DNA of 64,000 bases from Raillietiella orientalis. Taxonomy: Eukaryota. The notes under the pieces are model-generated. The model did not search any database and had not been told where the DNA came from. It saw nothing but the letters and a program-made list of their open reading frames with translations. The translations under genes were made by a program, and so were the position numbers. The stretch spans positions 310,001-374,000 of the forward strand of contig JAYWIR010000072.1 in the NCBI GenBank assembly GCA_036172245.1, read 5' to 3'. Positions 18,601 to 19,199 of the stretch are shown piece after piece. Position 1 is the first letter of the stretch; every line of letters begins with the position of its first letter.

Positions 18601-19181
18601 AAGGCACGGGGACGTCTGTGGCGTGAGAAATCCACAGTTCCCATTCCATGGATAGGGTGCATTGCGACGGCGGCATCGTTGAGAAATGGCGTGCGACGCT
18701 TCACTCAGTCACGTGGACGGAAGCAGGTCGGTCAATGAGCTTGCGAGTTCGCCGAGTCGACCAATGAGATCGCTCGGTGGGGACGCTAGTTTTTCCCGCG
18801 CAAAGGGCAGGAACAAAGAAGATCACGGAATCGAGGTGGTCAATCCCTGTGGTCGACCACCGTGGTTCCAAGTTTCGGAATGGGAATAAGGGCGACGTAG
18901 TGAGGGCCCGAGCGGTCAGTTCCGTCGATCAATCCCTCTTACCTTCCCGACAAGTGTGCTCTCTGGTCTGAGCCATGGCAGCACACAGGCGGGAGACGAA
19001 ATTATCCACTGCGACCACAAAATTTTCCACAGTGGCACAAAAGTTGGTGGAAAGGTTCACTGTAAGCCGAGGGTTTGCGGAACGAAAAATCACTGGGGGT
19101 CACCACTGAAAAAACTGCACTAGCAGCAGTTGCACACTGATGCGCGCGGGAGCTCCGGTTAGACACGTCCGTCATCCAAGG

Positions 19182-19197
<16 letters not shown>
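15620..19197 (-). mobile_element. NeSL/Utopia-like RLE non-LTR retrotransposon, copy 1 (5' end present, 3' end missing, degenerate)
   Basis: N-terminal zinc fingers; RT motifs WKESRTTLIPK, QKGFLPFDGLLEHN, WLDLKDAFASIPH, RGVQQECPLS, LAYADDL, YLGKPVG, LWQKLDA. Confidence 0.88.

Positions 19198-19199
<2 letters not shown>
19164..19199 (-). promoter_or_regulatory. Putative Inr-DPE core promoter of RLE copy 1
   Basis: Minus strand CCA(+1, 19197)TTC, with GGACGTG at exactly +28..+34 (19170-19164). Confidence 0.55.

Follow-up and report, generated by a model that had tools for sequence, protein, structure and literature searches.

The window, a 64,000-nt stretch of the Raillietiella orientalis genome (contig JAYWIR010000072.1, positions 310,001 to 374,000; G000:C72:310001-374000 in our coordinates), is a nest of degenerate non-LTR retrotransposons. 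The site under study is the 5' end of a minus-strand element, and the following features surround it (positions within the window).

19194..19199, minus strand: Inr-like CCATTC in 28S antisense sequence; the predicted +1 is the A at 19197, and the hexamer fits the BBCABW consensus given in PMC5580651
19171..19197, minus strand: 27-nt leader (+1 to +27), with changes relative to 28S antisense at +17, +18 and +21
19164..19170, minus strand: DPE-like GGACGTG (+28 to +34), the first bases of the RLE element
19149..19153, minus strand: GCTCC, the second conserved block of the 5' module (+45 to +49)
19171..19236, minus strand: the whole 28S antisense stub before the element, about 65-66 nt (-39 to +27)
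19237..19255, minus strand: 19 nt of degenerate 28S sequence, a stub belonging to the target's 3' side, after the 3' end of the upstream element
15590..19170, minus strand: degenerate RLE-type LINE with RT at 16598-17281; the 3' end is lost and the lower bound is approximate
19256..23859, minus strand: upstream RLE-type LINE of 4.6 kb, with RT and C-terminal CCHC/RH/PD..D; it starts with GGACGTG at 23859-23853

The GGACGTG motif occupies +28 to +34 counted from the A of CCATTC (A at 19197, motif at 19170-19164, minus strand), as the preliminary description had placed it. CCATTC has one mismatch to TCAKTY, and GGACGT at +28 from CCA+1TTC matches the DPE consensus RGWYV(T), the +28 spacing of which is described as strict in passages of PMC5580651. 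The first 27 nt, also described earlier as 28S-like, agree at 24 of 27 positions with the antisense of the genome's own LSU rRNA fragment (C158; Rfam RF02543), but the 28S stub extends for 66 nt rather than just 27. The adjoining 19-nt stub (19237..19255) looks like an ISR-like junction or a deletion. The element starting at 23859 had been taken as Tx1-like and is instead a second RLE element. This copy is ~800 nt shorter than its relatives (4.6 vs 5.4-5.5 kb) and shows RLE-body homology only from ~40-60 nt past the motif, which together suggest an internal 5' deletion.

A better-kept relative (the C83 copy) encodes zinc fingers and RT followed by CCHC, RH and PD..D endonuclease motifs, and by this order of sequence motifs the element is an R2-superfamily (RLE) LINE. 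The closest relatives of solved structure of the C83 protein are R2 proteins, and its top sequence homologues, with up to 42% identity, come from ticks, aphids, spiders, a nematode and a turtle. The family is inserted antisense in 28S with its 5' junction at +27/28, and its 3' ends resume at +57/58; insertion deletes ~29 nt of 28S, including the R2 site, and a 66-bp target duplication is thereby ruled out. The family shares with R2 the RLE protein and the 28S region used, and would resemble it in carrying target sequence at the RNA 5' end, which gives uniform junctions. However, R2 is inserted in sense, co-transcribed by Pol I and devoid of an internal promoter, whereas the element described here is antisense and removes the R2 site. 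Canonical R2 identity was rejected on its orientation, its junctions, the deleted R2 site and the failure to find a ribozyme with Rfam or a simple HDV-like descriptor. The family looks NeSL/Utopia-like from the spread of its homologues, which recalls Utopia; NeSL-group Utopia and the planarian LIN9/LIN24/LIN26 elements also encode an RT-CCHC-RLE protein (PMC4640811). Insertion into U2 snRNA genes, which defines Utopia, was not found; the flanks are 28S. Antisense 28S insertion by NeSL-group elements is already known from LIN24/26, the 3' junctions of which lie in antisense 28S ~70 nt from the RLE site described here (PMC4640811). The present family differs from this group in its position within 28S, and the LIN9 5' ends displayed in passages of PMC4640811 lack the 5' motif.

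All 15 listed RLE copies with a 28S flank, several of them duplicates, have the same base as 5' junction. Mismatches to 28S amount to 36/165 at +17 to +27, 3/240 at +1 to +16 and 14/536 at -38 to -1, and the change A+18>C is common to 13 of the 15 copies even though subfamilies are only 69-87% alike. We read this as a leader whose last 10 nt probably travel with the element while +1 to +16 would be renewed from the target. Among five types of non-canonical junction of 28S-targeting elements, only one is short (C81:14947, with 9-14 nt of 28S), and the other four carry 48, 65 (the window copy), 108 and 129 nt. In addition, one subfamily group has three copies with a long flank, all of which share variants at -72 to -45, and three copies share a variant at -2.

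These long stubs, together with far-flank variants common within subfamily groups, favor an alternative in which the module is promoter-like but the transposition RNA starts farther upstream at variable places, by read-through from neighboring elements or antisense rDNA transcription, the CA 27 nt upstream being incidental or one of several starts. Such read-through strikes us as doubtful. Long stubs can also be produced by DNA deletions between tandem rDNA remnants, and those at the odd junctions may be later deletions of this kind. The upstream element at C81:80609 is truncated, with the break 660 nt into its 5' part, a structure that insertion at the 3' nick cannot produce. C81:86691 is a visible chimera, which indicates that DNA recombination acts here.

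The 7-mer GGACGTG by itself is not enriched in the window (10 found vs 9.3 expected). The longer module GGACGTGT (at most one substitution)-N8-11-GCTY also occurs 10 times, and all 10 occurrences lie at element 5' ends or named junctions; the 100 shuffled sequences contained 2.1 on average and 5 at most, none reaching 10. The motif is a real, positionally conserved feature, as the preliminary description required, and it sits at the 5' ends of both RLE and APE (Tx1-like) elements, which points to a host factor. All nine other coordinates named earlier for the motif carry GGACGTG or a one-base variant, and eight of them belong to Tx1-like families as follows.

59308..59334, plus strand: T1 5' end, in which GGACGTG is preceded by 10 nt of element sequence and, before these, by the 10-nt TSD region, which holds non-host alleles
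35922..35948, minus strand: second T1 5' end, in a different host family
41464..41499, minus strand: T4 5' end, GGACGGG preceded at the exact spacing by TCAGAT from the host (A at 41497)
48899..48905, plus strand: T2 motif; the host CA is one base off and own sequence starts from +26
32164..32170, plus strand: T2-like motif GGACCTG
61644..61650, plus strand: T3 motif, lacking CA at +1; the element lies in sense within a host endonuclease gene
46514..46520, minus strand: T5 motif TGACGTG, behind the 3' end of another element (tandem junction)
4196..4202, minus strand: T8 motif GAACGTG; no CA at +1

These LINEs combine a zinc-knuckle ORF1, an ORF2 with APE and RT, target specificity and a short TSD, which is 10 nt long at one site of host RT regions; we take them to be Tx1-like from this architecture. 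Comparison with empty host sites places the start of own sequence at +18 in T1, +26 in T2, +22 in T3, ~+21 in T4 and ~+24 in T6; with the RLE family included, element starts range from +18 to +28. Element-specific sequence thus begins 0-10 nt before the motif, and the predicted +1 lies within target DNA in every RLE and Tx1-like family with a comparable empty site. An Inr inside the element, the hallmark of jockey-type internal promoters, was not found.

A CA dinucleotide falls exactly at -1/+1 in 6 of 14 family/target groups against a background of 5.3% (p 4e-5), and in 5 of 13 groups without the founding case (p 4e-4); the groups were hand-picked and the Tx1-like families are related, so the groups are not fully independent and these p-values are optimistic. 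At any other offset, CA occurs in at most 3 of the 14 groups, and this peak at a single offset argues against read-through from variable upstream starts. The count left out tandem junctions (46520, 23859, L133/134, L154 and C129:59297), where the 3' end of another element occupies +1, and motif matches that fell in RT coding sequence or had no clear status were dropped by hand (clusters 1, 4 and 6 along with several singletons). The exact CA is absent in 8 of the 14 groups, in two of which it lies one base off and in another two it lies two bases off. All six groups with CA are antisense insertions or share the host site of one, whereas neither of the two sense groups has it, a post-hoc observation; the groups without CA, including both sense-inserted ones, would be expected under read-through. 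The preliminary description had found no clean Inr in the Tx1-like copies. This holds for both T1 copies in the window, neither of which has CA, but not for the copy at 41470, which has TCAGAT. The commonest host among the T1 copies compared provides TCAGCC, and the window copies sit elsewhere. A second element inserted antisense in 28S (C32:1617028, minus strand; L091), one of the six with CA, likewise has GGACGTG at +28 from a 28S CA, at a site ~29 nt beyond the 5' junction of the RLE family.

G at +24, a mark of DPE promoters, is present in 12 of the 14 groups and missing in the window RLE copy. C at +18 or CTTGG, considered as an MTE, was rejected as a general feature, as C at +18 occurs in only 5 of the 14 groups and the CTTGG of T2 is host sequence. 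Genome-wide, in a test restricted to one strict consensus and two spacings, the fly-type Inr-DPE arrangement was not in excess: TCAGTY-N23-RGWCGT occurred 104 times vs 118 times with the spacing one base shorter, and the reversed controls gave 224 and 192.

Whether the 5' flank is carried by the template can be read from T1 (59328, plus strand; 35928, minus strand), whose copies lie antisense within the RT region of related LINEs, a 10-nt duplication accompanying the insertion. At -13, all 5 empty host-A sites have A and all 15 empty host-B sites have G; 14 of the 15 host-B sites also have A at -19. By contrast, a non-host base occupies -13 in the 5' leaders of 10 of the 15 distinct host-A T1 copies (one of 16 was a duplicate) and of 6 of 7 host-B copies, and 5 of the 7 host-B copies have G at -19. 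Non-host alleles therefore occur in 16 of 22 T1 5' leaders but in none of the 20 empty sites and none of the six 3' flanks for which the host is known, and the one-sidedness between 5' leaders and 3' flanks is significant (p 0.002). Host-C copies were excluded from these counts; the one pattern tried for the host-C empty site gave 0 matches. The host-A allele is also found in T1 leaders at non-A hosts (C129:56333 and C90:141282), indicating that leaders are picked up from targets. The earlier proposal that target homology on the RNA explains identical 5' flanks is strengthened accordingly, the T1 flank being template-borne and not merely conserved target. The alleles show, at the level of sequence, that carried-over target extends from the motif at least 19 nt upstream; this lower bound is also compatible with read-through from farther upstream.

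Allele mixing could alternatively reflect gene conversion between DNA copies, with an RNA free of target sequence and a spacing due to chance. The chimeric copy C81:86691 and many segmental duplicates speak for such exchange, but conversion would not be expected to leave the 3' flanks untouched or to place the host-A allele in 5' leaders at non-A hosts, and we regard this explanation as highly improbable.

A close parallel is found in melanogaster-type R1A of Drosophila (Stage and Eickbush 2009, PMC2718515), where R1A starts CGGACGTGT..GCGCTC. Full-length copies of this type likewise join the target precisely at the 5' end and delete part of it, and ISR junctions and tandem arrays are known as well. 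For melanogaster-type R1, the paper reports exact 9-bp deletions together with 6-28 nt of 28S taken along from upstream, whereas ancestral types carry none; the RNA of melanogaster-type R1 was inferred to bear these 6-28 nt and to anneal to the target (PMC2718515). The published carry-over ends at 27-28 nt, which does not fit read-through from variable starts. The motif is present in 10 of 12 files searched among the 23 supplement files of PMC2718515. Hand counts place RGACGTG at exactly +28 from a CAGT start in 5 of these 10 files. Another 4 of the 10, D. melanogaster included, start CGGACGTG and are of the type reported to carry 28S and to form precise deletion junctions. By hand count (+/- 1), the +1 predicted for D. 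melanogaster R1 would be the A of the 28S sequence TTAGT, ~26 nt ahead of the first base of the element. In D. ananassae R1B, the motif lies 10 nt inside the element behind a leader of its own, with no CA at +1 (hand count). R1A differs from the present elements in being APE-type and in sense orientation, whereas here the module belongs to an RLE element in antisense orientation and to Tx1-like LINEs that target other LINEs. The main text of PMC2718515 contains no match for DPE, initiator or polymerase II, and the 27-28 nt limit is thus left without explanation there.

Internal promoters of the Inr+DPE type are known from jockey, Doc, G, I, F, SART1 and TRAS1 (PMC4748587). These promoters and those of CAGT-start Drosophila R1 likewise have an RGWCGTG-type motif at +28 from CA, but their Inr lies inside the element, whereas here +1 lies in target DNA wherever empty sites are comparable. 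R2 offers another known route to a target-derived leader, in which the ribozymes cut within 28S, as far as 36 nt upstream, and thereby yield uniform junctions (PMC3774820). By analogy, the motif might be an RNA or cDNA signal for RNP assembly, second-strand cleavage or translation, with target sequence left on the RNA once a longer transcript has been processed, an HDV-like ribozyme being one possible agent. The absence of a host-wide Inr-DPE spacing signal and the additional GCTC block, which lies outside the DPE described in passages of PMC5580651, would suit this explanation. However, the window had no Rfam match to an HDV-like ribozyme and a simple descriptor matched 1 of 15 5' ends, the same motif occurs on elements with unrelated endonucleases, its position is exactly +28 in CAGT-start R1, and antisense elements cannot be co-transcribed with rRNA. 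An RNA signal of this kind is therefore improbable.

Collectively, a conserved 5' module, a +1 position in target DNA, precise junctions and one-sided allele carry-over are observed, and they are best accommodated, with a probability of roughly 0.55, by an Inr+DPE promoter at LINE 5' ends that is completed by the target, a variant of a known promoter type. Under this reading, site-specific LINEs would keep only the downstream half of an Inr+DPE Pol II promoter, comprising G at +24, GGACGTG at +28 and the GCTC block near +45. TFIID anchored on this module would direct a start ~27 nt upstream in target DNA, preferably where the target offers CA, which for the RLE family would be CCATTC in 28S antisense. 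The RNA would then begin with target sequence, of which the T1 alleles reveal at least 19 nt. After target-primed reverse transcription, the cDNA end may anneal to the new target and prime the second strand, a step modeled on R1 and R2. The predicted outcome is a precise 5' junction, mixing of donor and recipient alleles on the 5' side only, and a promoter rebuilt at each on-target insertion. The idea that the target completes the promoter, put forward in the preliminary description, thus gains from the conserved position, the +1 in target DNA, the CA enrichment and the template-borne flank, but not from the genome-wide spacing, in which the fly-type Inr-DPE combination shows no excess. Against it also stand the eight groups without CA at a spacing described as strict, the long 28S stubs, the shared flank variants, the chimeric copy, D. 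ananassae R1B and the lack of G at +24 in the window RLE copy.

More tentatively, and with somewhat less than even odds, split core promoters may be a general device of site-specific LINEs, in which elements as unrelated as RLE, Tx1-like and R1 LINEs retain only the DPE half, the initiator is contributed by the target and the length of target homology on the RNA follows from the fixed Inr-DPE distance of 27 nt. Both halves of this concept are known, namely Inr+DPE LINE promoters (PMC4748587) and target-derived RNA leaders in R1 and with the R2 ribozyme (PMC3774820). Their combination was not found in the literature searched, including passages of PMC5580651, PMC1538597, PMC13188248, PMC1947958, PMC5035012 and 10.1101/2025.04.30.651568, and a search for GGACGTG with retrotransposon returned nothing relevant among the matches listed; the original promoter studies of R1-clade elements, Tx1 and SART1/TRAS1 lay outside this scope, and the reading may already be in print. 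If true, only on-target copies would be good promoters and target choice would be constrained by where CA falls. The promoter would be complete only after correct insertion, and the same spacing would provide the homology needed to join the 5' end precisely. A single geometry would then link transcription and target specificity to the priming of the second strand, and an antisense rDNA element could acquire target homology at its 5' end without a ribozyme. In melanogaster-type R1, the upper limit of 27-28 nt of carried 28S would be explained as well, making testable in D. melanogaster the open point of why this RNA carries no more than 27-28 nt of 28S.

Several further observations concern the organization of these elements. 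T1 forms head-to-tail tandems of 5.66-kb units parted by the 10-nt duplication (C81:258001-275000 and regions of C26, C53, C90 and C129), similar to the tandem arrays described for R1. Its own 10-nt leader (59318-59327) resembles the T2 target (48889-48898), as if it were a relic of an older target. In two T1-like copies with a shifted junction, L082:7730 (C81:92731) and C142:35638, the motif adjoins the T1 host site ~27 nt farther upstream. T3 (61644, plus strand) occupies one and the same codon, in the GDFN motif, of the T1 endonuclease gene in all five copies seen and lies there in sense. Tx1-like 3' ends, for example at 23880-23905 and 46550-46570 (both minus strand), have a terminal hairpin-like GCCCCGG..CCGGGTG that is common to several families and follows an AATAAA-like signal. 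A further 5' end type has an 18-24 nt GCC-rich leader (C81:7719, C81:14828, C72:125709, C72:132409 and C81:70628) and in most cases adjoins the 3' end of an RLE element; the TCAGTC present at C81:70628 is two bases off the canonical spacing. The region C72:183000-202000 is a tandem repeat of a 9.5-kb unit composed of 28S fragments and two RLE subfamilies, and a U6 snRNA-like sequence (L089:3199-3306, on C158) lies 4.5 kb from the 28S fragment amid LINE remnants.
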